Shown: positions 10,378 to 55,677, counted from the first letter of the stretch. The stretch is 64,000 nt of DNA from Verrucomicrobia bacterium Tous-C9LFEB (GCA_964658105.1 CAZZXY010000005.1:366-64365); one strand, 5' to 3'. A program made the numbers and translations. The notes: generated by a model not told the origin, from the letters alone.

Positions 10378-10425
10378 CCCACGGCAGACATCACCACCAA
10401 GCGTGTTGCGCTTCGACCGAAGGAG

Positions 10426-10605: not shown

Positions 10606-10638
10606 GCCTAACGACCTGTAACACCGAATGGAGCCGTA

Positions 10639-10950
10639 ATGGATTTCAGCAAGATGAACGAGATGCTCTCCCAGGCCAGCGCCATGCGCGAAAGCATGGA
10701 AGAGAAGCTGGCCCAGACGATCGTTGAGGGCTCGTCCGGAGGGGGAGCCGTGGCGGCACGGATGAACGGCCGCAAGGAGCTGCTGAAGCTCACGATCACG
10801 CCAGCAGCCGCGTCCGCCGCGGCCAGCGACCTCACCATGCTTGAGGATCTGATTGTGGCCGCGGTGAATGAGGCCGGTCGCAAGGCGGATCAGGCTGCGG
10901 AGTCCAATGCCGGGGACATGCTGGGTGGCCTGGGGCTGCCCGGTTTCTAG
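10639..10950 (+). CDS. ybaB: YbaB/EbfC-family nucleoid-associated protein
   Basis: 103 aa with MNEMLSQASAMRESMEEKLAQ...VEGSSGGGAVAARMNGRKELLKLTI. Conserved dnaX-ybaB-recR order. Confidence 0.9.
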   Translation: MDFSKMNEMLSQASAMRESMEEKLAQTIVEGSSGGGAVAARMNGRKELLKLTITPAAASAAASDLTMLEDLIVAAVNEAGRKADQAAESNAGDMLGGLGLPGF

Positions 10951-30299: not shown

Positions 30300-30345
30300 T
30301 TGGTGGCATGAAACGCGGTGATGCGGTTCTCCTACAATAGGTCCT

Positions 30346-32618: not shown

Positions 32619-32619
32619 C

Positions 32620-33714: not shown

Positions 33715-33915
33715 CCGAGGTGATCTCCTCCATTCGCTTTCAGTCACTCAACCGCAGAACAGCCCCTTTTCTCCGTGGTCCCTTTCCGTCGTTGCCACGC
33801 ACAGGACTAGGCAGCCCTGGGCGTGGCTTGCTAAGCTCACCAAAGCCCATCTCTGCAAACGGAAACGGGCAGAATCTCGCCGTCGCTTTTCGTGGTTCGC
33901 GAGTTGAAGGTTCCC

Positions 33916-36900
33916 ATGTTTTGGCGTAACCGCAGCATGACAGGTATGGGGGCGAACCCAGGTGCACTTTGCATTGCGGACCCGCCCGCCACGGGGAAGG
34001 TCAGCCGTAAGCTGACGCAGGTAGCAGGATTCGGTATCGGGCTCCTGCTGGTGATCTCACTTGCTGGGTGCCGTGCGAAAACCGCCTTGCCCGAACCCGG
34101 ATCTCACGGGTATGAGAAGTTCGTCTCCTCCTTCTATGTCGGACTGGCTGGCCTCCAGGTAGGGGATGATGCTCGCGCGGAGACCAGCCTTGCGGAAAGC
34201 ACGCGGCTGGCCTCGGATGAGCCTGCAGCCTGGGTGAACTGGGGCATCCTGGCATTGCGACAACGGAACTACAGCGCCGCGGCAGAGCGGCTGGGGCACG
34301 CGCACACACTTGCGCCGAACAACGGCCAGATTGCCTATCTTCTCGGGCTGCTGGAGAGCGAACGCGGGAACTCTGCGGCTGCCATCACCCACTGGCAGCA
34401 GGCTGTTGCCCTGGACAGCCGGAATTTGCGTGCGCTTTATCAGCTTGCGTCCGAAATCGAGCGTCAGGGCGATGCGGACAGCGACGCGCGCTTTGAAAAG
34501 CTGATGCAGCAAATCCTTGCGGTTGATCCGAAAAACCTTGCCGCGGAACTTGAACTGAGCCGGGTTGCTGCTAAACGAGGCGACATCCCAACACTTCAGG
34601 CTGCGGTAATGGCCATTGCCAGTCAAAGCAAACCCTGGCCGCCCGAAGTAGCCGAGCAGCTTGCGCAACTACAAAGTGCAGCGAACGGCCAGCAGCCAAG
34701 GTCCGCCGCAACGCGATCCATCTTTCTACGCAATGTCCTGATGCGGGTGCCAACCTTTCGTGATGATCTCGCCGACCTGAAGCCTGCACCCGGTGAAGGC
34801 GCTCAGCCGATGTCGCACTTTCTTCGTGTCACCAATCCGTCGTCACGGCCTGCCCCTGCGGACGCTGCCATGAGTTTCGACGTGCAGCCCAGTGGTACCT
34901 CTGAGTCCTGGAGCTGGGCCGGTGCCTTGCTGCTTAACGGGGACGATGCTCCGGTGCTGGCCCAGGCTGACACGGGTCATTTGCACCTGGCCAACGGCGC
35001 TACTCTTCCCTTCCCCGGGGGCAAGAGCTCACAGCCCCTGCAACCAGAGAGCGTCCTGTCCATCGACGTCAACTATGACTTCAAGACGGACCTGGTGTTG
35101 GCCGGTGCCGGGGGCTTCCGCCTGTATCGCCAGGACGATCCCACCCACTTTACTGACGCTTCCGCGACGACGAAGCTGCCCCTCGCAGTACTGGACGGCT
35201 CCTACACGGGTGCGTGGGCACTGGATGTTGAAGCCGATGGCGACCTGGACATTCTGCTCGGGACGGTCGCAGGCGCACCCACACTCCTTCGGAATAACGG
35301 CGATGGCACGTTCGATGTCGAACATCCGTTCGGTACGGTCTCAGGTGTGCAACAACTCACCTGGGTGGACCTTAATGGGGACGGCAATCCAGATGCAGCC
35401 ATCCTTGATGGCGGGGGCCACCTGCACATCTTCCTGAACCGCCGGTCCGGCAACTTCGAGCAAGCAGACATTTCCCCCAGCCTGGGCCAGGTGAAGGCGA
35501 TTGCTGCTGCCGATGTCAGTGACAGTGACACGCTCGCCCTGCTGGTGGTGAAGAGTGATGGGAGCATTGTTCGACTGCTTACGCCCGACGAAGGCCGGCA
35601 CTGGACGTCCATTGACGTTGCAAAGGTTCCGGAGGCTGCCCACGCACTCGCTGGCGCTGTGCGCCTGTATGCAGCGGACCTGGATAACAACGGTGCCGTG
35701 GACCTGATCCTTTCACCAGTCAGCGGCAATGCCTTTAAACCCGTCATCTGGTTACAGAGCGTTTCCAACAACTTCAGCCTCTTCTCGGGTGGACCCACCT
35801 CGCTGCGGGTCTTTGCGCTTTCTGATCTAAAGCAGGATGGCCATCTCGCACTGGTGGGGCTTACGAACGAGGGTAGGGCGACGGTCGCGTCGAGTCGTGG
35901 CACCAGGGACTATCATTGGCAGACAATTCGGCCTCGGGCCAAACTGGCAACAGGCGACCAGCGTGTCAACTCCTTTGGCGTCGGTGGCGAGATCGAGATT
36001 CGCTCGAGCTTGCTGGTCCAGAAGCAACCCATCACCGGGCCCGCGCTGCATTTTGGCCTGGGCGACGGAAAACAGACCGATGTTGCGCGCATTCTTTGGC
36101 CAAACGGTTCCGTACGTGCCGAGTTCAACCTGAAGAGCGATAAGCAGATTGTGACAGAGCAGCGCTTGAAAGGCTCCTGCCCTTTTCTGTTTGCCTGGAA
36201 CGGCCATCGGATGCAGTTCGTGAAGGATTCTGTGCCGTGGGGATCGGCGATCGGCCTGCGTATCAACGCGCTCGGCACGGCGAAGATCGCGGCCACCGAG
36301 GAGTGGTACAAAATCGGTGGCGATCAACTGCAGCCGAAAGACGGCTTCTATGACCTGCGCATCACTGGTGAGCTCTGGGAGAGCTATTACTACGATTCAA
36401 TGGCGCTGATGACGGTTGACCACCCCCGGGGCACGGAGGTCTTCGCGGACGAACGCTACGATGTACCCGCGGTCAAACTGGCAGTGACGTCCGTGGCCGA
36501 ACCACAGCCGGTGGTGCGCGCCGTGGATGACGATGGACATGACGTGACGCGTATCGTCCGTGCGCTGGACGGAACGTATCTCGACAACTTCGGCCGTGGT
36601 CAGTACCAGGGAGTCACGCGCGATCACTTCGTCGAGGTCACGCTACCGGAGAACGCCCCGACGCAAGGGCCGCTGTGGCTGATTGCAAAGGGCTGGCTGC
36701 ACCCTTCCGATTCGTCCATCAACGTCGCCCTCGGCCAGGGCTCGGCGGAAAAACCGCAATGGCTAAGTCTCGAGATCCTCGGTAAGACCGGCAAATGGCG
36801 TGTGGCCAAGTCGAATCTAGGCTTTCCTGCTGGGCGCAACAAGATCTGCCTTATCGACCTAGCAGGTGTCTTTCAGCCAGGCGACGCTCATCGTCTTCGT

Positions 36901-37479
36901 CTACGTACCAATCTGGAGGTTTTTTGGGACCAGATCCAGTGGGCGCAAGGGCTTCCTGCTGCGCCGATGCATGTGCAGCGTGTGGAGCCTGCCGTTGCCG
37001 ACCTTCATTACCGTGGATTCTCTGTGATCAAACAGGCAAACGCCTCCTCACCGGAGATTCCCCAGTACGACCAGGTTGAAGGAACCTCGCAACGTTGGCG
37101 GGATCTGGAAGGGTTCTACACACGCTTTGGCGACGTGCGTGAGTTACTCGCAGGCATCGACGATCGTTACGTCATCATGAATGCCGGCGACGAAATGACA
37201 CTACGCTTCACCGCTCCTGCTCCACCTCCGCCGGGCTGGGTGCGTGACTTCATCATCGCCGGCGATGGCTGGATCAAGGACGGCGATTACAACTCCACCT
37301 ATTCGCAAACGGTACTGCCCTACCCGTACCATGCTCGTCGCGAGTACAACACAGCGCCGGGGGCGCTCGAAGATGACTTGGCCTATCGCCATCACGCGGG
37401 GGATTGGCAGACCTACCACACGCGTTACGTGACGGCGAAGGGCTTCGTCGACGCACTCAGGAGCGGTGCAGGACAATGA
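33916..37479 (+). CDS. giant TPR + FG-GAP/VCBS + ASPIC/UnbV lipoprotein with unassigned ~430-aa C-terminal module (paralog A1)
   Basis: Lipobox LLLVISLAGC, N-terminal TPR-like repeats, FG-GAP/VCBS repeats (DVNYDFKTDLVL, DVEADGDLDIL, DLNGDGNPD, DLDNNGAVD), an ASPIC/UnbV segment (NSFGVGGEIEIRS...HFGLGD...ARILWPNGS), then CPFLFAWNG... to the C-terminus. The start is uncertain (33892-33946). Confidence 0.8.
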   Translation: MFWRNRSMTGMGANPGALCIADPPATGKVSRKLTQVAGFGIGLLLVISLAGCRAKTALPEPGSHGYEKFVSSFYVGLAGLQVGDDARAETSLAESTRLASDEPAAWVNWGILALRQRNYSAAAERLGHAHTLAPNNGQIAYLLGLLESERGNSAAAITHWQQAVALDSRNLRALYQLASEIERQGDADSDARFEKLMQQILAVDPKNLAAELELSRVAAKRGDIPTLQAAVMAIASQSKPWPPEVAEQLAQLQSAANGQQPRSAATRSIFLRNVLMRVPTFRDDLADLKPAPGEGAQPMSHFLRVTNPSSRPAPADAAMSFDVQPSGTSESWSWAGALLLNGDDAPVLAQADTGHLHLANGATLPFPGGKSSQPLQPESVLSIDVNYDFKTDLVLAGAGGFRLYRQDDPTHFTDASATTKLPLAVLDGSYTGAWALDVEADGDLDILLGTVAGAPTLLRNNGDGTFDVEHPFGTVSGVQQLTWVDLNGDGNPDAAILDGGGHLHIFLNRRSGNFEQADISPSLGQVKAIAAADVSDSDTLALLVVKSDGSIVRLLTPDEGRHWTSIDVAKVPEAAHALAGAVRLYAADLDNNGAVDLILSPVSGNAFKPVIWLQSVSNNFSLFSGGPTSLRVFALSDLKQDGHLALVGLTNEGRATVASSRGTRDYHWQTIRPRAKLATGDQRVNSFGVGGEIEIRSSLLVQKQPITGPALHFGLGDGKQTDVARILWPNGSVRAEFNLKSDKQIVTEQRLKGSCPFLFAWNGHRMQFVKDSVPWGSAIGLRINALGTAKIAATEEWYKIGGDQLQPKDGFYDLRITGELWESYYYDSMALMTVDHPRGTEVFADERYDVPAVKLAVTSVAEPQPVVRAVDDDGHDVTRIVRALDGTYLDNFGRGQYQGVTRDHFVEVTLPENAPTQGPLWLIAKGWLHPSDSSINVALGQGSAEKPQWLSLEILGKTGKWRVAKSNLGFPAGRNKICLIDLAGVFQPGDAHRLRLRTNLEVFWDQIQWAQGLPAAPMHVQRVEPAVADLHYRGFSVIKQANASSPEIPQYDQVEGTSQRWRDLEGFYTRFGDVRELLAGIDDRYVIMNAGDEMTLRFTAPAPPPPGWVRDFIIAGDGWIKDGDYNSTYSQTVLPYPYHARREYNTAPGALEDDLAYRHHAGDWQTYHTRYVTAKGFVDALRSGAGQ

Positions 37480-39275
37480 ACCGGGCCACAATCGTTCGAT
37501 CGGTCGTAAGCACTTTGTTCTTAGGATTGCTCGCCACACCCCTCCTTGTGCGGCGAGCCTCGATGAAGAAGCAGCGGGCCGCTTCAGCGACGCTGGACGA
37601 GAAAACAGCGATCGCGAGACACGGGTTCTACCTGCAGGAGAGCTCCCGCGCTGCAGGTATCGACTTCGTTCATCAGGCACCCACGCTCGATCCGAAGTTG
37701 AACCACATCATGCCAGAGGTGGCCTCCATGGGCGCGTCGGTTTCCATTGTTGACTTCGATCGCGATGGCTGGCCTGACATTTATGCGACGAACAGCGCGT
37801 ATGGTGCGCAGAACCACCTGTACCGCAACATGCACGACGGCACCTTTCGCGATGTAGCGGGCCGGATGGGACTCGGCGACGTAAATCGGCCTGGCACCGG
37901 CGTCTCCATGGGCGCAGTCTGGGGAGATTATGACAATGACGGCTACGAGGATCTGTTCTTAGTGAAGTGGGGCAAGCCCGAGCTCTACCACAATGACGGC
38001 GGGAAAGGCTTTACCAGGGTGACCGACGCAGCGACCCTGCCGCCCTGGATCAACGCCAATACCGCACTCTGGTTCGATTACGACGGCGATGGTCTTCTGG
38101 ACCTGTTTGTCGGCGGCTATTACGCCGAAGACGTCGACCTCTGGCACTTGAAGACGACCAAGATGATGCCGGAGAGCTTTGAATATGCCAAGAATGGCGG
38201 GCGCAAATACCTATTCCACAATCTCGGCAACGGGCACTTTGAAGAAGTGAGCGCCAAACTGGGCATCGACAGCCGGCGCTGGGCGCTCGCCTCGGCTGCC
38301 GCCGATCTTCGCGGGACAGGGCACCCTGATCTTTTCATCGCGAACGACTACGGCGTCTCAGAACTGTTCGTAAATGACGGCAAGCGCTTCCAGGAGGAAG
38401 GCCAAAAGAGCGGCGTGGGGTTCGCCCCCAAGAGCGGCATGAACGTTGCCGTGGGCGACATCTTCAATCAAGGCAAATACTCGGTGTACGTCTCCAACAT
38501 CTCCGAAGAAGGTGTCCTGATCCAGGGAAACAATCTTTGGGTGCCAAAGGAGAACACAGGCACTGGCACTGTCGTCTATGAAAACATGGCCCGCGACCTG
38601 GGGGTTGAGCTGGGCGGCTGGAGCTTCGGCGCGCAATTCGGTGATCTGAACAACGACGGCAATCTGGATCTCTATTTGACCAACGGCTATGTGTCACTCG
38701 ACCGCAATAGGAGTTACTGGTACGACTTCGCCAAGGTCGCCGGGGGCAACGCCGCCATCATTTCCGACGCCGATCACTGGCCCGCTGTGGATGGCCGCAG
38801 CCACTCCGGGTACCAGCAAAAGCGCGTGTGGCTGAACGATGGCGCTGGCAAATTCGTAGATGTGGCTGCGGCGGTAGGCGTGAGCGACACGTACGACGGA
38901 CGTTCCGTCGTCATGGCAAACCTCTTCAACGATGGAGCCCTGGACGTCGTCGTAGCGAACCAGCGGGGGCCGCTGCTGCTGTACCGCAATAGGGTCGACC
39001 CAAGGAATCAGTGGATTGAGTTCGCGCTGGAAGGCACGAAGAGCAACCGCAGTGCCATTGGTGCGCAGATCACGGTCCGCTGGAACGGCCAGCAACAGAT
39101 CCAACAGGTCTCCGGCGGAAACGGATTCGCCGCACAGAACGACCGGCGTCCTCATTTCGGTTTAGGTCCGTCTCCACATTTGGATGGAGTTCAAATCCGG
39201 TGGCCGTCTGGTAGGATTCAGACGCTGTCGGACCCGAAGATCGGGCAGTTGAACAGCATCAAGGAGCCGGAGTGA
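37476..39275 (+). CDS. CRTAC1-family protein (FG-GAP/VCBS repeats + ASPIC/UnbV), N-terminal membrane anchor
   Basis: ATGA overlap with the upstream stop. IVDFDRDGWPDIY, WGDYDNDGYEDLF, WFDYDGDGLLDLF, FGDLNNDGNLDLY, then NRSAIGAQITVRWNG...FGLGPSPHLDGVQIRWPSG. Confidence 0.85.
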   Translation: MNRATIVRSVVSTLFLGLLATPLLVRRASMKKQRAASATLDEKTAIARHGFYLQESSRAAGIDFVHQAPTLDPKLNHIMPEVASMGASVSIVDFDRDGWPDIYATNSAYGAQNHLYRNMHDGTFRDVAGRMGLGDVNRPGTGVSMGAVWGDYDNDGYEDLFLVKWGKPELYHNDGGKGFTRVTDAATLPPWINANTALWFDYDGDGLLDLFVGGYYAEDVDLWHLKTTKMMPESFEYAKNGGRKYLFHNLGNGHFEEVSAKLGIDSRRWALASAAADLRGTGHPDLFIANDYGVSELFVNDGKRFQEEGQKSGVGFAPKSGMNVAVGDIFNQGKYSVYVSNISEEGVLIQGNNLWVPKENTGTGTVVYENMARDLGVELGGWSFGAQFGDLNNDGNLDLYLTNGYVSLDRNRSYWYDFAKVAGGNAAIISDADHWPAVDGRSHSGYQQKRVWLNDGAGKFVDVAAAVGVSDTYDGRSVVMANLFNDGALDVVVANQRGPLLLYRNRVDPRNQWIEFALEGTKSNRSAIGAQITVRWNGQQQIQQVSGGNGFAAQNDRRPHFGLGPSPHLDGVQIRWPSGRIQTLSDPKIGQLNSIKEPE

Positions 39276-40150
39276 GCGTCCAGACCATCGCGGTGCCCTC
39301 GTTGACCAAGACGGTGACCACGACATCGTGGCGTAAGTGGCTTTCCATGGAGAATCGCTTTCTCCCTCCTGCGTTCATCACGCTCATCCTGCTTGTTGGC
39401 CACTTCTCCTTCGGCATTCTGGAAAGCTGGACGCGAACGCTGCTAGCAATTACCACAAGCATTGGTGTCGAACTGATTCTGGGCAAGCTTGTCGTCGGCA
39501 AATGGCCGAACGTCGCGAGTGCTTACATCAGTGGCATCAGCGTTGGCATCCTGTTGCGCTCGCCCGCTTTCTGGCCGTACGTCGTATGCGCCGCGCTGGC
39601 GATTACTTCGAAGTATGTGGTGCGTTACAGAAACAGGCACCTCTGGAATCCCTCGAACTTCGCTATCTGCGTCGTGATCTTTCTGGCTGCAGATACGGTT
39701 GCCACTCTCAGTATCCAGTGGGGCAACAACATCTGGGCAATGCTGGTCATCTGGGCTCTCGGATCCACGATTATCTGGCGTCTGCGGCGCTTTCACATCT
39801 GCGCCACATATGTGCTGTCGTTTGTACTTTTTGCGGCGTTACGCTCACGGATCGTCGGCGATCCATTCCTTTCAGAGCTTTCACCCATCACCGGCCCCGA
39901 GTACCAGTTGTTTATCTTCTTTATGATCACCGACCCAAAGACCACAGTGCGTTCCAAAGTGGGCCAGTGCGGCGTCGCGTTCGCCGTTGCTTCGGTGGAG
40001 ATGGTGCTGCGATTGAACAGCAGCATCTACGCTCCCCTGTACGCTCTCTTTCTCGTGGGGCCACCTGCTCTACTGCTCTCGACCTGGTGGAACGGAAGGC
40101 GAGAGAAACGCATGCAACAGCAGCCAGCCTCCGGCATGGTGCTCGCGTAG
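39272..40150 (+). CDS. polytopic membrane protein with RnfD/NqrB-like motifs
   Basis: GTGA overlap with the upstream stop, with AAGGAG 5 nt upstream. About 8 TM helices. HLWNPSNFAICV and FFMITDPKTT resemble the H-x-F-NPA and F-M-x-TDP motifs of the NQR2/RnfD/RnfE superfamily. No S/T-G-A-T FMN-attachment motif is seen. Confidence 0.55.
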   Translation: MSVQTIAVPSLTKTVTTTSWRKWLSMENRFLPPAFITLILLVGHFSFGILESWTRTLLAITTSIGVELILGKLVVGKWPNVASAYISGISVGILLRSPAFWPYVVCAALAITSKYVVRYRNRHLWNPSNFAICVVIFLAADTVATLSIQWGNNIWAMLVIWALGSTIIWRLRRFHICATYVLSFVLFAALRSRIVGDPFLSELSPITGPEYQLFIFFMITDPKTTVRSKVGQCGVAFAVASVEMVLRLNSSIYAPLYALFLVGPPALLLSTWWNGRREKRMQQQPASGMVLA

Positions 40151-40182
40151 CCAGCAAGGCCGCTGGCGTTCCAAAACAAACC

Positions 40183-42033
40183 TTGTTTCAGGATCTCCCA
40201 TTGTTCTCAGTTCGGTCCGCCCCTGTTTGCCTCTTCTCATTGAGCGTTGCGTTAACGCTGTGGGGCTGCCACAAAGCTCTGCAACCCGCTGAGACTTCAG
40301 AAACACACCCAAGCCGCCCAGCTTCCTCGAGTCCGGTTGCCCAGCAATCGACGATGCCGGATCCGGCTGTGCAGCCATTGGCTGTTCCCGTTCGCCCGTC
40401 CGGTCCCGTCACCTTTGCAGATGCAACCGCCGCTGCTGGCATTCACTTTCGGCACAACAACGGAGCCTTCGGCACCAAGTATCTTCCTGAGACCATGGGC
40501 AGCGGCGTCTGTGCCCTGGATTATGACGGGGATGGACTGCAGGACATCTTCTTTGTGAACTCCGCCGACTGGCCAACTCATAAGAAGATACGAACCACCG
40601 GAGCGCTTTATCACAACAACGGAGATGGAACGTTCACAGACGTGACGCGTAGCTCCGGGCTCAGCGTCGAGATCTACGCAATGGGTTGCGCCGTCGGTGA
40701 TTTCGACAACGATGGCCGCGACGACCTCTACATCACGGCGTTGGACGGAAATCACCTGTTTCACAACCTGGGCGGCGGCAAGTTCACGGATGTCACCGCG
40801 CGTGCAGGTGTGAAAGATGCAGGCTTCTCGACAGGATCGGTCTGGTTCGACTTCGACAATGACGGTAAGCTGGACCTCTTCGTGTCGCACTATGTTGACT
40901 GGTCCGTCGCCACAGATCAGACCTGCTCTCTTACCGGCAAGGGCAAGTCCTACTGCACACCAGAGGCCTACAAGGGCCAGAGCGCAACGCTCTTTCATAA
41001 CAAGGGCAACGGTGTCTTCGAAGACGTAACGAAGAAGGCCGGCCTCTATGATCCGACCAGCAAGTCCCTGGGCGTAGCGCTACTTGATTTCGATGATGAT
41101 GGCTGGCTTGACCTCTTTGTCGCCAATGACACGCAGCCCAACAAGCTGTACCGGAACAACCATAACGGCACCTTTACGGAGAGCGCCTTCGCTTCGGGTG
41201 TAGCCTTCAGCGACGCCGGCAAAGCGCGTGCCGGGATGGGTGCGGATTCAGCCGATTATGACGGGTCAGGCAAGCTGGGCTTGCTTGTTGGAAACTTCAC
41301 CAATGAGAGCCTGGCGTTGTATCACAACGAGGGCGGCGGTCTGTTCGCGGACGCCACACCCGCCTCTGGGATCGGACCCTCCTCCGCGAAGTCCCTAACG
41401 TTCGGGACGTTTTTCTTCGACTACGATCTCGACGGACGGCCCGACATCTTTGCTCTCAACGGGCACGTCGCGGACGACATCAGCGACGTGCAGCCCACAC
41501 TGAAATACGCAGAGCCTCCTCTGCTCTTCCACAATCGTGGCAGCGGTAAGTTCGACGATACGTCAGAGAAGGTGGGCTCCGCATTTCGCCAGCCCGTCGT
41601 TGGTCGAGGGGCCGTTTTCCTGGACTTTGATAACGACGGCGACCTTGATCTCGTGTTTAACATCTCGAATGGTCCCGCTCGGCTGTTGCGGAATGATGGC
41701 GGAAACGCAAACGATATGCTCCGGGTGAGGCTCATCGGCACGCGGTCTAATCGCGATGGCATCGGGGCCCGAGTTACAGCAAGGGTCGGCAGCCATCACC
41801 AGATGCAGATGGTCAAGAGTGGCTCAAGCTACCTCTCGCAAAGCGAGTTCCCCCTCACCTTTGGACTTGGTAAGCCATCGCCTGAGAAGATCGTCTCACT
41901 GGACATCGCCTGGCCAAGCGGTCGCAAAGAGAGCGTAATGAACACACCTGCGAATCAATTCATCACCGTGCAGGAAGGCAAAGGCGTCATCGCATCCAGG
42001 CCGCTGGTACTGACAGCCTCACCTAGGAAGTAA
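40183..42033 (+). CDS. CRTAC1-family lipoprotein (FG-GAP/VCBS + ASPIC/UnbV)
   Basis: A TTG start at 40183 or 40201 gives the signal ...MFSVRSAPVCLFSLSVALTLWGC. ALDYDGDGLQDIF, VGDFDNDGRDDLY, WFDFDNDGKLDLF, LLDFDDDGWLDLF, then NRDGIGARVTARVG...FGLGKPSPEKIVSLDIAWPSG. The first ~280 codons of the listed ORF 39337..42033 overlap the membrane gene in another frame. Confidence 0.85.
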   Translation: MFQDLPLFSVRSAPVCLFSLSVALTLWGCHKALQPAETSETHPSRPASSSPVAQQSTMPDPAVQPLAVPVRPSGPVTFADATAAAGIHFRHNNGAFGTKYLPETMGSGVCALDYDGDGLQDIFFVNSADWPTHKKIRTTGALYHNNGDGTFTDVTRSSGLSVEIYAMGCAVGDFDNDGRDDLYITALDGNHLFHNLGGGKFTDVTARAGVKDAGFSTGSVWFDFDNDGKLDLFVSHYVDWSVATDQTCSLTGKGKSYCTPEAYKGQSATLFHNKGNGVFEDVTKKAGLYDPTSKSLGVALLDFDDDGWLDLFVANDTQPNKLYRNNHNGTFTESAFASGVAFSDAGKARAGMGADSADYDGSGKLGLLVGNFTNESLALYHNEGGGLFADATPASGIGPSSAKSLTFGTFFFDYDLDGRPDIFALNGHVADDISDVQPTLKYAEPPLLFHNRGSGKFDDTSEKVGSAFRQPVVGRGAVFLDFDNDGDLDLVFNISNGPARLLRNDGGNANDMLRVRLIGTRSNRDGIGARVTARVGSHHQMQMVKSGSSYLSQSEFPLTFGLGKPSPEKIVSLDIAWPSGRKESVMNTPANQFITVQEGKGVIASRPLVLTASPRK

Positions 42034-43599
42034 TCAGACGGAGGTAGCAGCAAAACCCGTGCGCTGCAGCAGACTCTCTATCGCTTCAGTGCTCGCGCCT
42101 ACCTTGTGTGCGCCTGCAAACAAGTCGGCAGCCTGTACTGGATAGCAATGATCACTTGGCTGCTTACACAATCCAGCAACGTCGAACCGTTCGATCAGTG
42201 CGAGGATTTCCGTTTGAAGGCAGAGCTTCTCTGCGGGGCTCAATGACTGCCGGGCACGCGCGGTGATACGACGGAACTCAGGTCCGAAGACCTCATCGTT
42301 GTGCAGCAGAAAAGACTTCGCAAGTTGGGGAGTGCCTAGTCGCCGCACCGTTTCGGCGTAGCTTGCGGCTGTGAAGTACAACAAGGAGAGCGTGCGGAAC
42401 ATGGGGAAATCCGCCATGTTCGCGTACAGTGCGCCGATGAGCCGCGACGTTGCCAATAACTCGGCGTCAGTCTCATCAGCATAGCGCGCAAGGCTCGTCG
42501 TGAACGCTGGGGTGTTCCAGTCACGCTCCAGCATCTCTCCCACGCGAGATATGCCGAGTAGCGTTAACGGGAACCCTGTGGAGAGCAGTGGATCGACAAA
42601 GCCAGCGGCCGAGGGCAACAGAGTCCAGCCCTCACCGGCAATCTTTGCACTGCGAAACGGGAGCTTCGGCGAGAAGGAGAATGGTCTCGTTGCTTGCGCG
42701 TTGGCGAACTGCTGCTTCACTTCGGGTAAGACGTCCAGCACTCTCTTCCAGGCGTCCTCTTTTTCCGCGAAACGAAAGCGCTTCGCAACCGCGGGCGATC
42801 CCGCGACTCCCGCGCTGGTCCATCCATTATTGAAGTGCAGCACCCACATCCATCCACCCTCAAAGACGTGGTGCAGTGCCGCAGCGTCTGGAGGATATGG
42901 TGGAGTGCCTGCTGCATAGTGCTGAGTTCCCCCGAAGTTCTCCACCCCCGTGAAGTGGCTGAACAACGCGGAGGTCTCGGGATAATCCGGCAGGGGCGCC
43001 TCTTGCAGAGACAGCACGCGATGCAGCAAGCCCCGTGGTCCAGTGGCGTCAATGATGAAATCGGCAAGAAAGTGCAAATGCGCGTCGCCCTGCCGACAGT
43101 TCACATGCCACACCGAATCCTCGCGGTCCATCTGGTGAACATCACAGCCGTCGAGGTAATCCACGCCCAGGGCGCATGCCTGCTTCAGCAGCAATTGGTC
43201 GAAATCAGCCCGAAACCAATGCGTGTCTGCGATCGCGTCATTCGGACTCGCAGCCACCAGCAAGTGACGGTCGGTTGCAGTTGCATTCTTGGGGCTGCTG
43301 GAGGAGACATCATGATGGAAAAAGGTAAAGCCGCGCTTCAGTCCACAGCCGACCTCCGGGTAGGTGTGCTGCCATGTGCCCCACTTGGTCAGTGGCTTCA
43401 GCATGGGGAGGTCGTACCTGTCAGCCAGGGTCTCTAAAAGCAGGTTGCTCAGCGGAGTCGAGGATTCTCCAATGACAACGCGCGGGTGTCTGCCCTTTTC
43501 CAGCATGACCACAGAGAGCCCGAGCCGTCGGGCGATCATAGCCATGAGGGATCCAGCGAAGCCGGAACCTGCAATCGCGATGTCATAACGCTGCTTCAG
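42034..43599 (-). CDS. flavin-dependent halogenase-like FAD oxidoreductase
   Basis: YDIAIAGSGFAGS (GxGxxG), VVIGESSTP, GLKRGFTFF, GGWMWVLHF (a variant of WxWxIP) and GFVDPLLSTGF. The Rossmann strand lies upstream of the first ATG (43545), so I extend to the CTG at 43599-43597 that overlaps the upstream TGA. Confidence 0.8.
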   Translation of the reverse strand: MKQRYDIAIAGSGFAGSLMAMIARRLGLSVVMLEKGRHPRVVIGESSTPLSNLLLETLADRYDLPMLKPLTKWGTWQHTYPEVGCGLKRGFTFFHHDVSSSSPKNATATDRHLLVAASPNDAIADTHWFRADFDQLLLKQACALGVDYLDGCDVHQMDREDSVWHVNCRQGDAHLHFLADFIIDATGPRGLLHRVLSLQEAPLPDYPETSALFSHFTGVENFGGTQHYAAGTPPYPPDAAALHHVFEGGWMWVLHFNNGWTSAGVAGSPAVAKRFRFAEKEDAWKRVLDVLPEVKQQFANAQATRPFSFSPKLPFRSAKIAGEGWTLLPSAAGFVDPLLSTGFPLTLLGISRVGEMLERDWNTPAFTTSLARYADETDAELLATSRLIGALYANMADFPMFRTLSLLYFTAASYAETVRRLGTPQLAKSFLLHNDEVFGPEFRRITARARQSLSPAEKLCLQTEILALIERFDVAGLCKQPSDHCYPVQAADLFAGAHKVGASTEAIESLLQRTGFAATSV

Positions 43600-44570
43600 T
43601 CAGCACCTCCGCAGGCGTCGCATATCACCCGCTTCTCTACTAGTTGGGAAAGATTCATTCGTCGCAGTCGATCCTTGCGCGTGCCTCCGCAGTCTGTGCA
43701 GCACAGCAAGCGGTCGAGGTCCCAAAGATCGAGAACCACGCGACCGGCATGACGGTTCACGCCATAGTCCAGAGCATCCTCCACCACAGAAAGAGTCGGT
43801 GGTGCAAACTCACCTGCTTCCCCAAGCTGCTCCATTGCACCGTTACTAGCGCGTGTGGGTATCAGGGCAACCACGGTAGCGCCGCAGTTCTGTGCGAAGT
43901 CCATCGACTGGCATGCCCAAAACAACGACTCTTCAGCTTTCATGAAAGGAGGTTGCACAAGAACGAACGAACGCAGTGCAATACCGCTGATCTGTAGTCG
44001 CGAAGCCGCTGCAGCATATTGCTCCAGCGTCATACGCTTGTTTAGTCTTTCGAGCACGGCAGCATGCGCCGTTTCGAGTCCCATCGCGACTTCTAGTTGG
44101 CCTTCGACCATGTCCTGAAAGCGGAGGCAGTCTTCACTCACCAGTGCCGGATGACATTCCACGATGACTCGTTCAAAGGGCTGCAACAGGTCCGCAATGG
44201 CGGCGTAATCCTGCTGCGGGATCGCACCTGTATCAAAGAAGCTGCCGCTGTTGTAAAGCTTGATCTGACGCGCGGGGGGGAGGCGGCTTAGGGCGTATTC
44301 AATCTGCCGCGGAATGTCACCGGCGGCTACCGGCGACGCGAGCGTGTGACGCCACAGATCGCACATGACGCATCGCCAGGGGCACTCCCGATTGGTTAGG
44401 AAGAGGGTCGCAACATTGCCTACGGTGCCATCAGCAAACCGCTCCGGCTCCACGAGAAACGCGTAGGGCTCGTCGGTATTCAGTGGCACGCGTCCGCCAC
44501 GACGCGCCAGGATCCAGCGGTCGCGCTCGGCTGCGGTTTGCGGGTACACAGAAAGCGTGGTGCCCATCAC
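43596..44570 (-). CDS. radical SAM protein (TIGR01210/RaSEA-like by eye) with C-terminal Cys-rich tail
   Basis: FLTNRECPWRCVMCDLW contains CX3CX2C (44361-44384). Also LYNSGSFFD and a C-terminal CCTDCGG...CDACGG. The start (GTG 44570 or ATG 44567) overlaps the upstream stop. Confidence 0.8.
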   Translation of the reverse strand: MMGTTLSVYPQTAAERDRWILARRGGRVPLNTDEPYAFLVEPERFADGTVGNVATLFLTNRECPWRCVMCDLWRHTLASPVAAGDIPRQIEYALSRLPPARQIKLYNSGSFFDTGAIPQQDYAAIADLLQPFERVIVECHPALVSEDCLRFQDMVEGQLEVAMGLETAHAAVLERLNKRMTLEQYAAAASRLQISGIALRSFVLVQPPFMKAEESLFWACQSMDFAQNCGATVVALIPTRASNGAMEQLGEAGEFAPPTLSVVEDALDYGVNRHAGRVVLDLWDLDRLLCCTDCGGTRKDRLRRMNLSQLVEKRVICDACGGAD

Positions 44571-45886
44571 TGGTACATGGCAAGGAACTGTCGGCGGTAG
44601 TCCGCCTCTGCAAAAGGAAGGCGATGCCGCAGATCCGTTTGCGGCAACGCCCCATGCTGAAAGCGACGTTTATCAAAGACCGGCATTGCAAACCCGGTGA
44701 CCGCCTGTATGCCGCGGCGGACGACCTCGCCCTTCAGTGCGTACAGCCGCGGCACATCGTAGTCAGTTAGCTTGATGAACGGGATGTCTTCTGCGACCGC
44801 GATGACCTGCGGCCGGGTGAATGGGCTGAAACCACGAAATCCGAGCCTGGTTGCTGGCGCATAGGTGCGCGTGTAGGAGCGGCTCAGTCCCCCGCTGTAG
44901 GTCTGCGAGTGCTTGATCTTTCCCACGCCCCAGCCTTCCTGGTACAGCATGGAGTTGTTGACTACGCTGCGTATCGTGAGCTCCGGGTTTTCCTCGATGG
45001 GGTAGTCCTTGAGGTTCTCGTCGCCACCATCTCCGTCGAGGAGGTACTTCCAATCCGGATAGCGCGCGCGAATGCCCTTGCACAAGGCAAGCGCCATGCT
45101 GGCAGACTCCACGTCCAGAGACTTGTAGTCCTCAATCACCCGAATGGTTTCGCCCGGGTCGATTGTGGCAGGACTCACCTCAATCGGTTCAAGAAAGAGA
45201 CCCAAGCCCACGGCGTCCAGGAACGCGCGTGCCTGTTGCACATCAGGGCCACTGCCGAGGTCCAGCACAAAGGCCTTCAGCCGCCCAAGATGCATGCCGC
45301 GCTGCTTCATCGCGTGGTAGGTCGTCAGAAAGACGGCGCCGCTGTCGACTCCGCCGGAAAAACACACCCCCAGCGGCTCATTGGCAGGTACATGTTCCAG
45401 CCAAAGACCGATCTCCTCGGCAAGAGCTGCTATGTACCGCTGGCCGATGATGTCGAGATCAGGCGGCAAAGTCCCCATCGTAGGCGTAAAGAAGCGCGTG
45501 TACACCGGATCAGGATCAGGGCAGCCTACCAGCTGGATCTCAGTCACATGATGGGCGGGCACCATACGCGTGTAGCTCGGGTGAAACTGACTTTCCAGAC
45601 CTTCAGACCGCAGGTGCTCAAGGATGGCATCGATGCGGGAGGCAACGATCAATACTGGACCTTCCTTTCGCTTGGCGAGGAAGTAGCGCATCGGACGGTC
45701 CAGCGACCGTGCCATGCGTACCACTTTGCCCTCGCGTGCAATCAGCGCGAACGACCCCTGCAGCCGAAGAATGGCTTCGGCTGGCTGCGTCCGCAGCACC
45801 GCCCGCGCATCCTCGGCGGACAAGCTATAGAGATCGTTTCCTTCCGGGTCCAAGAGATCCACGACGCGTTCAATGTACTGATCCAA
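44567..45886 (-). CDS. asparagine-synthetase-B-family PP-loop ATP-dependent amidoligase lacking a glutaminase nucleophile
   Basis: GVCFSGGVDSGAVFL (SGGVDS at 45341-45358) plus a remnant N-terminal domain (LQGSFALIAREGKVVRMARSLDRPMRYFL). The start is uncertain: TTG 45886 is preferred because third-position GC drops upstream of it. Alternatives are TTG 45907, ATG 46042 and the ORF limit 46117. Confidence 0.8.
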   Translation of the reverse strand: MDQYIERVVDLLDPEGNDLYSLSAEDARAVLRTQPAEAILRLQGSFALIAREGKVVRMARSLDRPMRYFLAKRKEGPVLIVASRIDAILEHLRSEGLESQFHPSYTRMVPAHHVTEIQLVGCPDPDPVYTRFFTPTMGTLPPDLDIIGQRYIAALAEEIGLWLEHVPANEPLGVCFSGGVDSGAVFLTTYHAMKQRGMHLGRLKAFVLDLGSGPDVQQARAFLDAVGLGLFLEPIEVSPATIDPGETIRVIEDYKSLDVESASMALALCKGIRARYPDWKYLLDGDGGDENLKDYPIEENPELTIRSVVNNSMLYQEGWGVGKIKHSQTYSGGLSRSYTRTYAPATRLGFRGFSPFTRPQVIAVAEDIPFIKLTDYDVPRLYALKGEVVRRGIQAVTGFAMPVFDKRRFQHGALPQTDLRHRLPFAEADYRRQFLAMYQ

Positions 45887-46060
45887 GGCAACCTCTTTGC
45901 AATGCAATTGCGAACATTCTATCGCTTGCGCAACGCCCTGCGCTCCTGCAGCTGGTTGGCTTTCAGCACATCCGAATTTGCGGGATGCCTCTTGCCAGGA
46001 CGGAACGCTCGCTGCACAACTGCATCTCTGCTCACGTATCATCACTTGCCAGTGGTGTCC

Positions 46061-49000
46061 ATGAACGTTACGCGTTGGCAAGCCCGCTTCTCTTCCATTT
46101 CCGCCTGTTTCGGCCACCGATACCGACCACCCTGCCGAGCGATTCTGCTACTGAGTTTGTCATCGTTGCTGCCCGGGATTTCGACTCGCGCCCAAGCGGC
46201 GACGGGGCCGGGGTCGGCACAGAGCGCAGCTCGCTCCAACAACGTTGGGGTGGCATACATGAACCAGCAGTTCATGGAAAAGGCGCTGCATAAGTTCGAG
46301 GAAGCCAGACAGGCAGATGCGGCGGCTGTGATTCCACTCGTGAACGAAGGGGTGGCTTACCTCTATCTGCGCAAGCTGCCGGAAGCCGAAGAGACTCTGA
46401 AAAAGGCGACGTCGCTCGATCCCAAGAGCGTCCGTGCGTGGTACAGCCTTGGGGTGGCCGCTTTCACCGGAGGAGCTCAGGACGAAGCACTCAGTGACTT
46501 CCAGCACGCTTCCGCGATCGATGCCCAGGATGCCGATACTCACTACTTCATTGCGACGATCTATTCCAGCCAGAAAAGATTCGACGAGGCCGTTCCAGAG
46601 TTCAACACGGCACTGAGCCTGAATCCACTGCATGCGTCGGCGCAGTTCGGTCTTGCGCGTGTGTTGCAACGTCAGGGCAAGGTTGAGGACGCCCGGGTGC
46701 ATATCAAGCGTTTTCAAGACATCACCGATAAAAAGATCGGGATGCTGATGAGCGCCTCGTATGGAGAACAGGGGCGCTATGCGACCGTGCAGGACATGCT
46801 CGGGACGCCTTCCAACGCCGCACCCATGATTCCTGTGACCTTTGTCGCAGAGAATGGCCCAATCGCCACGGAAACGCAGGTGGGCACGGGCAAGAGCGCC
46901 TCCGGCGGCGTCTGCGTGCTGGACATACAAGGGGACGGCAGCAAGAACGTCGTCGCGACGACGACCGGCGAAGGCTTACGCGCCTACAGCATCAGCAAAG
47001 GGGGAGTCCCGGAGGTTCTACCGGCTACCGCAACCGGCCTGATCGCGAAAGGTGATGGCGTCTCCTGTGCAGTGGGGGATTTCGACAACGATGGACTTCC
47101 GGATCTAGCGCTCGCGCTGACCGATCGTGTCCTTCTGTTCCGCAACCTCGGCCATGGTAAGTTTGCCGATGTCACGGACAAGGTCGGCCTCAGGTCGCTG
47201 AATAAGCCCGCAGGTATCACCTTCGTTGACTTCGATCACGATGGAGATCTCGATCTCTTCGTGACAGGTTCGCCTACAGCGGCAGGGGCCAGCGTACTTT
47301 GGCGCAATAATGGCAACTCCACTTTCACCGAGTGGACCACGGCACCAGGTCTTGCGGGAACGGGCAACACCATCGGGGCCGTGCTGTCCGATGTCAACAA
47401 CGATCGAGCGGTGGATCTCTTTGTGAGTGGCGACGGTACCGCCCCGCAGCTCTACCTGAATCAACGCGAGGGCGCCTTCAAACAGATCGCGTTGTACGCC
47501 AATGCGGCGCTTGCGACCAGTCGTGGTCTCGCCGTAGCCGACTTCAATAAAGATGGCCTCATGGACGTTGCCGTGACGCACACCGGCGCTCCGGGCCTAA
47601 GCCTGTGGCGGAATGTGGACGGCAGTCGCTTTGAACGGGTAACAATCAATCTGCCGGGCGTCATCTCCGCTTGGGGTTTGACCCCGATCGATTTTGACAA
47701 CGATGGCTGGATCGATCTGGCAGCTCTCGTCGAGACCTCCACGGGTACGCAGTTGCGGATGTTGCGGAATGAAGGCGGCATGGGTTTTCAGGACGTCAGC
47801 GAGGCCCTGGGCCTGCGCAAGCTGAACCTCTCGGGAGCGCGCTCCGTCGTTGCCGCTGACGTCAATCTGGACAATGCAGCGGATCTGGTGATTGGACGCG
47901 TCGATGCGCCACCCCTGGTGCTACGCAACGTGGGTGGCAATCGCAACCATTCTCTCCGAATCAGTCTCGCTGGCCTTGCCGATAACAAGAGTGCTATCGG
48001 CACCAAGGTTGAGGTCTTCTCCGACGGGAACTGGCAAAAGTTCGAGGTGCCCGGCGCGTCCGGGTACATGGGCCAGGGCGCCACGGAGCTGATCGCCGGG
48101 CTGGGCTCCAGCGAACATGCCGACGTGGTCCGCCTGCTGTGGCCTACGGGCGTCCCTCAGGATGAACTGGACATCGCAGCGAACAAGCCGCTCGCGCTTA
48201 CGGAGCTTGATCGCCGCGGCAGCTCCTGTCCTGTCCTCTTTGCCTGGGATGGGGCGAAATACACCTTTGTCTCGGATGTTATTGGCGCGGGCGTGGTCGG
48301 GCACTGGATGTCCCCTACCTCACGCAACCAGCCTGACTCCGACGAGTGGACCAAGATTGATGGCAACATGCTGCACGCCCGTAAAGGGCAACTTAGTGTG
48401 CGGTTCGGTGAACCCATGGAAGAGATCAACTACATCGATCACCTTCGCCTCGTCGCGGTCGACCACCCCGCGAACACGGACGTTTACCCCGACGAGAAGT
48501 TTCTCACTGAACCGCCGTTTGCTTCCGGCAAAACCATGGTTGCCTCCTCAGCAACGCATCTGCCTCTGGGCGCGTGGGGCGATCATGGTCAAGACGCGCT
48601 CGCAGTCCTGTCCAAGCGAGACCACCACTACCTCCAGGATTTCAAGAATCTAAGTTACGCTGGCTTTGCCAACGATCACACCCTGACGCTTGACCTTGGG
48701 TCCTGGTCACCCCAGAACCCGATCCGCCTCTTTTTGCATGGCTATGTCGAATATTTCAGTGCTAGTTCCATGTATGCCGCGTGGCAGGCGGGCATCCAGC
48801 CACAGCCGCCCAGTGTGGAAGCTCAGATGCCGGACGGCAACTGGAAGCTCATCATCGCCGACATGGGCTTCCCTGCGGGACTGCCGCGAACGATCGTCGT
48901 TGACCTTACCGGCAAGCTGCCCGTGGGAGCGCGTCGCCTCCGCCTCAAGACGAATCTACAGATCTACTGGGATCAGGTGCTGGTGGATAATGGCCCGGAT

Positions 49001-49543
49001 GCAGGGGCAACCGCGCACACTACGGAGTTGCCGCTGACCTCGGCGCACCTCGCCTTCCGTGGCTATCCGAAGCAGGTTGATTTGGAAACGCCCGGTGATC
49101 TTACCTACGACTACCAGAGCATCAGCATGACCGGCCCGTTTGGCTGGCAGCGCGGCAGCTACACCCGTTATGGTGATGTCACTCCGCTTCTCACGCAGCG
49201 CGACAATCACTACGTTATCTTCGGTAGCGGAGAAGATATCGATGCGGAGTTCAGTGATGCGTCCCTGCCATCGTTGAAGCAAGGCTGGAAGCGCGACTAT
49301 TTCTTCTATGCTGACGGCTTCGTCAAGGACATGGACTTCTACGAGGCCCTTCCTTTCACGGTAGCGGAGATGCCCTTTCACGAGATGTCGAGCTATCCCT
49401 ATACCTCGCGCGAACGTTTCCCTGACGGAGCTGATTCGCTCGCGTACCGCCTCGAGTGGAACGACCGTATGGAGACCGGCGAGCGCACGCAGCGCTTTCA
49501 GTTCGACTACAGGCACAAGATTTCAGAGCCGATTCAGAAGTGA
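46061..49543 (+). CDS. giant TPR + FG-GAP/VCBS + ASPIC/UnbV protein with the same unassigned C-terminal module (paralog A2)
   Basis: ATG 46061 gives the signal ...RAILLLSLSSLLPGISTRAQA. TPR repeats, VGDFDNDGLPDLA, FVDFDHDGDLDLF, VADFNKDGLMDVA, PIDFDNDGWIDLA, then NKSAIGTKVEVFSDG...RLLWPTG, then CPVLFAWDG... The upstream 1150 nt of the listed ORF 44909..49543 are antisense to the AsnB-like gene and are rejected. Confidence 0.8.
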   Translation: MNVTRWQARFSSISACFGHRYRPPCRAILLLSLSSLLPGISTRAQAATGPGSAQSAARSNNVGVAYMNQQFMEKALHKFEEARQADAAAVIPLVNEGVAYLYLRKLPEAEETLKKATSLDPKSVRAWYSLGVAAFTGGAQDEALSDFQHASAIDAQDADTHYFIATIYSSQKRFDEAVPEFNTALSLNPLHASAQFGLARVLQRQGKVEDARVHIKRFQDITDKKIGMLMSASYGEQGRYATVQDMLGTPSNAAPMIPVTFVAENGPIATETQVGTGKSASGGVCVLDIQGDGSKNVVATTTGEGLRAYSISKGGVPEVLPATATGLIAKGDGVSCAVGDFDNDGLPDLALALTDRVLLFRNLGHGKFADVTDKVGLRSLNKPAGITFVDFDHDGDLDLFVTGSPTAAGASVLWRNNGNSTFTEWTTAPGLAGTGNTIGAVLSDVNNDRAVDLFVSGDGTAPQLYLNQREGAFKQIALYANAALATSRGLAVADFNKDGLMDVAVTHTGAPGLSLWRNVDGSRFERVTINLPGVISAWGLTPIDFDNDGWIDLAALVETSTGTQLRMLRNEGGMGFQDVSEALGLRKLNLSGARSVVAADVNLDNAADLVIGRVDAPPLVLRNVGGNRNHSLRISLAGLADNKSAIGTKVEVFSDGNWQKFEVPGASGYMGQGATELIAGLGSSEHADVVRLLWPTGVPQDELDIAANKPLALTELDRRGSSCPVLFAWDGAKYTFVSDVIGAGVVGHWMSPTSRNQPDSDEWTKIDGNMLHARKGQLSVRFGEPMEEINYIDHLRLVAVDHPANTDVYPDEKFLTEPPFASGKTMVASSATHLPLGAWGDHGQDALAVLSKRDHHYLQDFKNLSYAGFANDHTLTLDLGSWSPQNPIRLFLHGYVEYFSASSMYAAWQAGIQPQPPSVEAQMPDGNWKLIIADMGFPAGLPRTIVVDLTGKLPVGARRLRLKTNLQIYWDQVLVDNGPDAGATAHTTELPLTSAHLAFRGYPKQVDLETPGDLTYDYQSISMTGPFGWQRGSYTRYGDVTPLLTQRDNHYVIFGSGEDIDAEFSDASLPSLKQGWKRDYFFYADGFVKDMDFYEALPFTVAEMPFHEMSSYPYTSRERFPDGADSLAYRLEWNDRMETGERTQRFQFDYRHKISEPIQK

Positions 49544-55663: not shown

Positions 55664-55677
55664 CTATATCTCCGTAT

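Follow-up and report, generated by a model that had tools for sequence, protein, structure and literature searches.

A conserved three-gene operon encoding an AsnB-like ligase, a RaSEA-type radical SAM protein and a halogenase-family flavoprotein in Verrucomicrobiota and other soil bacteria

The 64,000-nucleotide stretch of DNA analysed here (the window) comes from Verrucomicrobia bacterium Tous-C9LFEB (GCA_964658105.1, CAZZXY010000005.1:366-64365), and positions are counted from its first letter. Three open reading frames (ORFs) on its minus strand, at 42034-45886, encode an AsnB-like protein, a radical S-adenosylmethionine (SAM) protein and a flavin adenine dinucleotide (FAD)/halogenase-like protein, with overlaps at both junctions. 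The first gene (44567..45886, minus strand, 439 aa) specifies an AsnB-like, glutaminase-less PP-loop ligase and has a TTG start preceded by the Shine-Dalgarno sequence AAGAGG at 45897-45892. The second (43596..44570, minus strand, 323/324 aa) specifies a RaSEA-type radical SAM protein, and its start overlaps the stop of the ligase gene. The third (42034..43599, minus strand) encodes a member of the flavin-dependent halogenase (FDH) family, 521 aa long when counted from CTG 43599.

At the first junction the ligase stop codon (TGA, 44569-44567) is overlapped by either of two possible starts of the radical SAM gene, GTG 44570 (GTGA, an overlap of 4 nt) or ATG 44567 (TGATG, 1 nt). At the second, the radical SAM stop codon (TGA, 43598-43596) is overlapped by CTG 43599-43597, as CTGA, with GGAGG 7 nt upstream of the CTG. 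The frame of the flavoprotein gene holds no ATG, GTG or TTG upstream of ATG 43545, and its Rossmann/FAD-binding motif, DIAIAGSGFAGS, lies upstream of that ATG. As the CTG is the sole start that retains this motif, the halogenase-like gene appears to begin at the non-canonical CTG codon 43597-43599. The equivalent codon is TTG, ATG or GTG in most homologues, and in two other species (loci L038 and L080) it is also CTG with a preceding GGAGG. The original prediction, which was made from the window alone, of three minus-strand genes with overlapping stops and starts was thus confirmed at both junctions, and all of the motifs it quoted are present (SGGVDS, CPWRCVMC, LYNSGSFFD, GSGFAGS, IGES, CGLKRGF, GGWMWVLHF and FVDPLLSTG). 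It had extended the unit to 46042, which is too far, the ligase gene in fact starting at TTG 45886. The start was placed there because AsnB-like homologues begin at the same codon, with a canonical start at this position in 54 of 68 loci; a start near 46042 was rejected, as both the homologues and the AAGAGG sequence point to TTG 45886. A plus-strand ORF antisense to the ligase gene (44909-49543, 1544 aa) was likewise discarded as a high-GC artefact upstream of ATG 46061.

The distribution of the triad was surveyed in one genome per species with the radical SAM protein as query, giving at least 575 loci with a relative, of which the best 80 were used to count gene order. All distribution counts are lower bounds, and the taxon labels of metagenome-assembled genomes (MAGs) depend on binning quality, a few among these loci being probably mis-binned. 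The AsnB-like gene lies directly upstream of the radical SAM gene in 78 of the 80 loci (ligase identity 61-88%), and the flavoprotein gene directly downstream in 79. The three exceptions are one contig end and two Verrucomicrobiota loci with no adjacent ligase gene (L031 and L065); in these two the radical SAM and flavoprotein genes are adjacent, there is no AsnB-like gene within 7 kb, and the radical SAM protein has an N-terminal extension. The co-localisation of the three families in other genomes, on which the original prediction had staked its case, therefore holds in the same order in 78-79 of the 80 species loci. Among 72 loci, the commonest spacings correspond to 4-nt overlaps at both junctions: the distance from the AsnB-like stop to Tyr9 of the radical SAM protein is most often 20 nt, and that from the radical SAM stop to Tyr5 of the flavoprotein is 8 nt in 52 of the 72. 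Constant order together with these spacings puts the coupling far beyond chance, and a single translationally coupled operon is the best explanation of the three genes.

Most of the 80 loci are labelled as Acidobacteriaceae and related Terriglobia, the others as Blastocatellia, Bryobacteraceae, Solibacteraceae and Verrucomicrobiota. The trio was also found on a contig whose AsnB-like protein is labelled Planctomycetaceae by NCBI (55/36/38% identity), and Pirellulales- and Armatimonadota-labelled contigs carry it as well, as do two of unknown taxon (L089 and L093); ligase identity on the Planctomycetota- and Armatimonadota-labelled contigs is 55-71%. Cultured carriers include Granulicella sp. 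L46, Silvibacterium bohemicum S15, Acidobacterium sp. S8 and Acidobacteriaceae KBS 96. The operon is kept in at least several hundred species of soil bacteria, belonging to several phyla, under strong purifying selection. In one locus (L027, 8312-9349) a 345-aa ORF with the N-terminus MTPKVFVRDQEGKPCLPTHPARARKLL is inserted between the radical SAM and flavoprotein genes; by its look it may be RRXRR/HNH-endonuclease-like.

The ligase gene is separated from a divergent TPR/FG-GAP/UnbV gene by 174 bp (45887..46060), the presumed promoter region. A search for recurrent upstream k-mers found one motif there, a -10-like element with the consensus GCGTAAACTG in homologues and ATAGAAT in the window. 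A scan for sigma-70 promoters and terminators gave background levels only. Rfam had no match in the whole window at gathering thresholds, nor in the 5′ region at E<=1, and so gives no clue to a riboswitch.

The AsnB-like protein matches the Pfam model Asn_synthase (40.7 bits; the Pfam cutoff is 21), and scores far under the curated cutoff of TIGR01536 (40 against 267 bits), as do 11 of 11 diverse relatives. It begins M-D-Q-Y-I-E, and homologues begin MDHY or MQSY, so that Cys2, the N-terminal nucleophile that defines asparagine synthetase B, is missing. The PP-loop SGG-D-S is invariant in the family, and the N-domain retains invariant R62, R69, F103 and Y107. The superfamily, the PP-loop and the lack of a Met-Cys terminus had all been read correctly in the original prediction. 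An AlphaFold2 model, for which the alignment was diversified by adding distant relatives, has a predicted local distance difference test score (pLDDT) of 89 and a predicted template modelling (TM) score (pTM) of 0.91. The best Foldseek matches to this model are beta-lactam synthetase, human ASNS, E. coli AsnB, CarA (carbapenam synthetase) and TsnB9, at a TM-score of ~0.62 and 15-18% identity, with E ~1e-12 to 1mc1, 8sue, 1ct9 and 1q19; TtuA and LarE are weak matches. Given the model and the Foldseek placement, the protein is, as modelled, an AsnB-type enzyme with its two domains complete and an N-domain that is not a glutaminase, which is the beta-lactam-synthetase-like architecture that had been proposed. 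The family is sharply isolated, with 756 cluster representatives of 1.8 billion at E<=1e-3, mostly fragments. PDB sequence searches with the protein gave no useful match, a metagenome scan for the most divergent group (P0347 type) gave none, and no copy of the ligase was found in a plasmid collection. A lone distant relative (33% identity, P0315 group), a sister sequence of which is labelled Nanoarchaeota, occurs on an archaeal-looking contig (L081, 6632-8014); its gene adjoins an AsnC-type helix-turn-helix gene and has no radical SAM or flavoprotein partner.

The only meaningful family match of the radical SAM protein is TIGR01210 (RaSEA), at 108 bits and E 5.5e-31 against a cutoff of 212.15, in keeping with the earlier placement of the protein by eye. 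All of 21 homologues match the same model, and the next families appear at E>1e-5; the marginal next match is the tRNA enzyme MnmL, and that to the Pfam Radical_SAM model is weak. The cluster motif C63-x3-C67-x2-C70 is present and its three cysteines are invariant. Further conserved cysteines at the C-terminus (C291/C294 and C317/C320) likely form a Cys4 site. The TIGR01210 match ends at residue 274, before this tail, so that the tail is particular to this radical SAM family. A PDB sequence search with the protein found no relative. No ArcS-type gene adjoins the radical SAM gene in any locus examined, its place being taken by the AsnB-like ligase. Two apparent AsnB-radical SAM fusions (P0108 and P0268) were frameshift artefacts. 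A 30%-identical relative on the plasmid pFRL3 of Streptomyces sp. FR1 (L090, 8791-9906) heads an unrelated sugar-type cluster with P450, serine hydroxymethyltransferase, GT9, carbamoyltransferase and heptose-activating genes; neither this different context of the radical SAM clade nor the lone ligase of L081 was informative on function.

The third protein matches the Pfam model Trp_halogenase (57.9 bits, cutoff 21) and carries GxGxxG (GSGFAGS) at residues 11-16. In a phmmer search of the PDB its nearest relatives are PltM (1e-42, 150 bits) and CtcP (4e-42), to both of which it is ~30% identical, followed by ChlB4, Bmp-type enzymes, PltA and CmlS. Among the NCBIfam models QhpG (NF049967) is the top match (84 bits against a cutoff of 240), CmlS scores 70 against 900, and GoxB and LodB are also matched. 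The motifs CGLKRGF (containing Lys88), GWMWVL[RH]F and FxDPLLSTG are present, and Lys88 is invariant both in a 69-sequence alignment of the window protein with homologues from the loci and in seven diverse sequences, including two from Planctomycetota-labelled contigs. Lys88 aligns with chain residue 107 of tagged PltM; if 20 residues are allowed for the N-terminal tag, this is presumably the catalytic K87, the catalytic lysine of flavin-dependent halogenases being K87 in PltM and K79 in PrnA. The WxWxIP position reads GWMWVLHF in the window protein, GWMWVLRF in the consensus and GWMYVLRF in L082, so the Trp pair is mostly kept and the Ile-Pro is not. The assignment to the halogenase family with a degenerate WxWxIP motif, made previously, agrees with the Trp_halogenase match and the retained lysine, and the protein looks like a functional halogenase.

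It is also possible that the flavoenzyme serves the pathway proposed below as a hydroxylase. The loss of the proline from WxWxIP and the replacement of the second Trp by Tyr in L082 would fit this, as would the top rank of QhpG among the NCBIfam matches and the lack of a flavin reductase among the window ORFs screened. However, the lysine aligned with that of PltM (presumably Lys87) is invariant in all homologues examined, and the close solved relatives are all proven halogenases of free phenols or pyrroles. Flavin reductases for halogenases are, moreover, commonly encoded elsewhere in the genome.

A set of four plus-strand genes, a probable partner module, converges on the triad (33892..42033; Pfam assignments, start codons approximate). 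It consists of a TPR/FG-GAP/UnbV gene (33892-37479), an FG-GAP/UnbV CRTAC1-like gene (about 37404-39275), a gene for a 292-aa RnfD-like membrane protein (39272-40150) and a further FG-GAP/UnbV gene (about 40237-42033). Within this module, the CRTAC1 structure (PDB 9etn) is matched at 1.7e-16. On the other side of the triad lies the divergent TPR/FG-GAP/UnbV paralogue (46061..49543, plus strand, 1160 aa with a signal peptide, starting at ATG 46061; Pfam), and a divergent TPR/FG-GAP neighbour, 63-74% identical, is present in about 14 loci. Paralogous CRTAC1-like TPR/FG-GAP/UnbV_ASPIC genes are found at three places in the window, 33892-42033, 46061-49543 and 56714-58429. The RnfD-like protein is highly conserved, with the motif FFMITDPKTT, and lies within a recurrent four-gene cluster.

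Neighbourhoods were compared in 93 loci with flanks of up to 7-8 kb, 92 of which hold at least part of the unit. An RnfD-like homologue is in the flank of 53 of the 93, in four arrangements: the convergent four-gene cluster of the window; the same cluster minus the last FG-GAP gene; a divergent layout (L050, L070); and a same-strand, operon-like layout upstream of the unit (L056, L091, L092). In L056, which comes from a Blastocatellia MAG, about 55 nt separate the end of the TPR/FG-GAP gene from the ligase gene, and in L091 and L092 the order is TPR/FG-GAP, FG-GAP, RnfD-like, ligase and radical SAM, with the flavoprotein gene absent. No FG-GAP gene was found within 7-8 kb on the Planctomycetaceae-, Pirellulales- and Armatimonadota-labelled contigs or in several Blastocatellia loci. 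When the scan was reversed, with the RnfD-like gene as its anchor, the triad was present in 9 of 26 informative metagenome loci and absent in 17. Because the linkage survives rearrangement, including the same-strand loci, the flanking FG-GAP/RnfD-like genes are probably functional partners of the triad, although not obligatory ones. The TPR/FG-GAP loci on either side had been noted in the original prediction and treated as bystanders; their presence stands, and their linkage through four layouts makes them probable partners instead.

Downstream of the ligase-radical SAM pair of L091, at 9479-10744, is an exported EF-hand ORF with an in-frame stop directly after GSFT, and the frame past this stop runs on into a T4_deiodinase-like domain. 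In active sites of the deiodinase type this position is occupied by selenocysteine, and by this analogy the ORF may be a candidate selenoprotein of a dehalogenase-type family. In the window, an amidase gene, a nucleotide-sugar set (PseB-like dehydratase, UDP-GlcNAc 2-epimerase and DegT aminotransferase) and a ferritin-like domain protein pair occupy 28878-33714 and 54578-56595; in other genomes the triad shows no linkage to any of these genes.

The linkage bears on another explanation, that the triad modifies an exported protein in the cytoplasm before its secretion, most plausibly one of the neighbouring CRTAC1-like FG-GAP/UnbV proteins. The radical SAM enzyme would introduce a cross-link, the flavoprotein would hydroxylate or halogenate an aromatic residue, and the AsnB-like enzyme would form an isopeptide or amide bond, resulting in a cross-link or a protein-derived cofactor. 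We consider this rather doubtful, though it has a precedent in QhpG, an FDH-fold flavoprotein that, with the radical SAM enzyme QhpD, builds the tryptophylquinone cofactor of a periplasmic enzyme (PMC7876137). QhpG, GoxB and LodB are among the NCBIfam matches of the flavoprotein, and the FG-GAP/UnbV and RnfD-like linkage outlasts four rearrangements, same-strand layouts included. Lasso cyclases are AsnB-like enzymes that make isopeptide bonds, so this chemistry is within reach of the ligase fold. Against such a role, no small substrate subunit, protease or exporter was found, and the flavoprotein is far nearer to halogenases of free substrates (PltM, 150 bits), the QhpG entry 7CTQ not being matched at E<=1. 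Several lineages also lack an FG-GAP gene within 7-8 kb, and the triad is missing from 17 of the 26 loci anchored on the RnfD-like gene.

The QhpD/QhpG system resembles the triad in that a radical SAM enzyme and an FDH-fold flavoprotein serve a periplasmic enzyme, quinohemoprotein amine dehydrogenase. That enzyme contains a beta-propeller subunit, and the FG-GAP proteins beside the triad are expected to be beta-propellers. The radical SAM protein here is not of the SPASM type, however, and the small gamma-subunit, protease and ABC exporter are replaced by an AsnB-like ligase; no qhp genes occur among the window ORFs screened.

Searches for a known context were negative. No other gene is conserved across lineages beside the triad in the neighbourhoods of the loci, which contain no ribosomally synthesised and post-translationally modified peptide (RiPP) recognition element (RRE), protease or transporter/exporter. 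A scan of the 80 loci for conserved small ORFs, reaching 650 nt upstream and 520 nt downstream, turned up nothing but shadow ORFs of neighbours. PADLOC defence models had no match, no tRNA, queuosine or 7-deazaguanine genes are linked to the unit, and neither Pfam nor NCBIfam detected a PUA, THUMP or other RNA-binding domain in the three proteins, all of which are acidic (median pI ~6). Full-text literature searches returned no paper describing this gene combination; a preprint on halogenases and Acidobacteriota has halogenase and AMP-ligase clusters in sponges as its subject. Three further claims of the original prediction withstood these searches: no precursor peptide, RRE, protease or transporter is nearby, by the small-ORF scan and the neighbourhood survey; the unit falls outside characterised pathways, no hidden Markov model library or literature match placing it in one; and the family calls hold in Pfam and NCBIfam, with every curated equivalog score far under its cutoff. 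Judged from the proteins' sequences, the unit combines a partner system of the RaSEA type with ligation of the AsnB type and FDH chemistry, and is a member of none of those families.

These results make a RiPP or lasso-like natural-product cluster with a missed precursor gene highly improbable. All three enzyme superfamilies are known from RiPP pathways, and two of 11 distant AsnB-like relatives weakly match a macrolactam-cyclase model, although the window protein itself matches no lasso or macrolactam model. Besides the lack of a conserved small ORF, RRE, protease or transporter, there are no plasmid copies, and a ligase that is 61-88% identical across 78 loci is unlike RiPP tailoring enzymes. 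The triad likewise differs from lasso peptide cyclase systems in having no adjacent precursor peptide or B protein (RRE/protease).

Modification of a nucleic acid, in which the PP-loop enzyme and the RaSEA-like protein would act on a tRNA or rRNA base or a 7-deazapurine nucleoside and the flavoenzyme would carry out a third step, is also improbable. Many tRNA-modifying enzymes are found among PP-loop ATPases, and TtuA and LarE are weak structural matches of the ligase. MnmL, the marginal next match of the radical SAM protein, is a tRNA enzyme, and the AsnB-like protein is strongly conserved. To our knowledge, however, no halogenase-family flavoenzyme acts on RNA, and the acidity of the triad proteins, the lack of detectable PUA, THUMP or other RNA-binding domains and the absence of linked tRNA or queuosine genes speak against it. 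The substrate of RaSEA itself is tRNA-bound preQ0-lysine (PMC11298593), but ArcS accepts even the free nucleoside (PMC11298593), so that RaSEA-type chemistry is local to the adduct and not to tRNA.

The ArcS-RaSEA pair of Euryarchaeota is the closest parallel for the first two genes. ArcS attaches lysine, not NH4+, Asn or Gln, to preQ0, and RaSEA, which is active only in complex with ArcS, turns the lysine adduct into an amidine (PMC11298593). RaSEA is the sole meaningful family of the triad radical SAM protein, it is coupled, like RaSEA, to a putative nitrogen-transferring partner that uses neither glutamine nor ammonia, and the tight coupling within the triad suggests a complex. In contrast, the partner here is an AsnB-type PP-loop ligase and not the PUA/TGT-like ArcS, the hosts are bacterial, the radical SAM protein scores 108 against 212 bits and has an extra Cys4 tail, and a halogenase-type flavoenzyme is added. 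Since a glutaminase-less ligase is coupled to a RaSEA-like enzyme, the ArcS-RaSEA logic is the most economical reading.

On this basis we tentatively propose that the triad encodes a self-contained cytoplasmic pathway: the ligase would pair with the RaSEA-like enzyme, and the flavoenzyme would halogenate or hydroxylate the same scaffold. The tailoring or biosynthetic role of the original prediction is supported by the family calls and the co-localisation; as a statement on function it stays interpretive, with protein maturation as its main rival. We infer the substrate, the order of the steps, the formation of a complex and the product as follows. The substrate would be something that every carrier cell already has. 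The AsnB-like enzyme, unable to hydrolyse glutamine, would adenylate a carboxylate (or carbonyl), and the activated group would be joined to an amine, most likely an amino-acid side-chain amine such as that of lysine. The RaSEA-type enzyme, probably complexed with the ligase, would then process the amino-acid adduct by hydrogen abstraction: it would either break the C-N bond so that the nitrogen stays in place, in the manner of RaSEA acting on preQ0-lysine, or rearrange the adduct. For the PltM/CtcP-like flavoenzyme we envisage halogenation of an electron-rich ring of the scaffold through its conserved lysine, with hydroxylation as the less likely reaction. The product may be a small metabolite or cofactor that bears an amide and possibly a halogen; in many lineages it would probably serve an envelope module of CRTAC1-like beta-propeller proteins and an RnfD-like membrane protein. 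A small molecule is favoured because all three proteins have an acidic pI, RNA-binding domains are missing and there is no peptide precursor.

Several points weigh against this pathway. The radical SAM protein reaches just half of the RaSEA cutoff and has the extra Cys4 tail, and could therefore catalyse different chemistry. The flavoprotein has a degenerate WxWxIP motif (W-x-W-x-L-R/H), its best NCBIfam match, QhpG, is a hydroxylase that modifies proteins, and the window ORFs screened include no flavin reductase gene. A protein substrate would explain the FG-GAP/RnfD-like link equally well. Lastly, the Planctomycetota-like loci L091 and L092 lack the flavoenzyme gene, and L031 and L065 lack an adjacent AsnB-like gene, so that the three steps are not strictly inseparable.

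Other characterised systems share parts of the proposed pathway. Beta-lactam and carbapenam synthetases and TsnB9 share with the triad ligase the two-domain AsnB fold and the PP-loop, their N-domain being likewise non-catalytic or repurposed, and they form amide bonds from an adenylated carboxylate, but the triad ligase has no clavam, carbapenem or trichostatin context, and an identity of 17% is too low for mapping the catalytic Tyr-Glu dyad and Lys loop. PltM and CtcP, the nearest sequence relatives of the flavoprotein, have in common with it GxGxxG, the catalytic Lys and FxDPxxSxG; unlike them, the triad protein (~30% identical) has a degenerate WxWxIP motif and belongs to a chromosomal operon conserved across phyla, not a strain-specific antibiotic cluster. 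Pyrrolysine biosynthesis (PylBCD) is also the work of a stand-alone trio, a radical SAM enzyme, an ATP-dependent amide ligase and an oxidoreductase, which turn a common amino acid into a new small molecule, but all the enzyme families differ (PylC is an ATP-grasp enzyme, PylD is NAD-dependent) and the analogy is one of logic only.

A more specific version of the pathway, offered as an unlikely conjecture, is that the ligase and RaSEA-like enzyme form a bacterial 'radical amidotransferase' which, with a halogenase of housekeeping type, makes a chlorinated cofactor or ligand for the CRTAC1-like/RnfD-like envelope system. The radical SAM enzyme would replace the lost glutaminase domain by stripping the carbon skeleton from an amino-acid nitrogen donor. 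If true, this would extend the ArcS-RaSEA trick beyond archaeal tRNA and would place halogenation in core physiology, outside strain-specific secondary metabolism.

Soils are rich in Acidobacteriota, Planctomycetota and Verrucomicrobiota, phyla that are still poorly understood. The radical SAM protein of the triad looks like the first RaSEA-type enzyme of bacteria for which a defined partner has been found, and the operon could reveal a new metabolite or cofactor together with a novel route by which nitrogen is supplied for amide synthesis. It could also point to a biological source of soil organohalogens, and offer a first way into the function of bacterial CRTAC1-like FG-GAP proteins, which are very numerous. 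In these dominant soil phyla, the operon may involve halogenation outside classical secondary metabolism.

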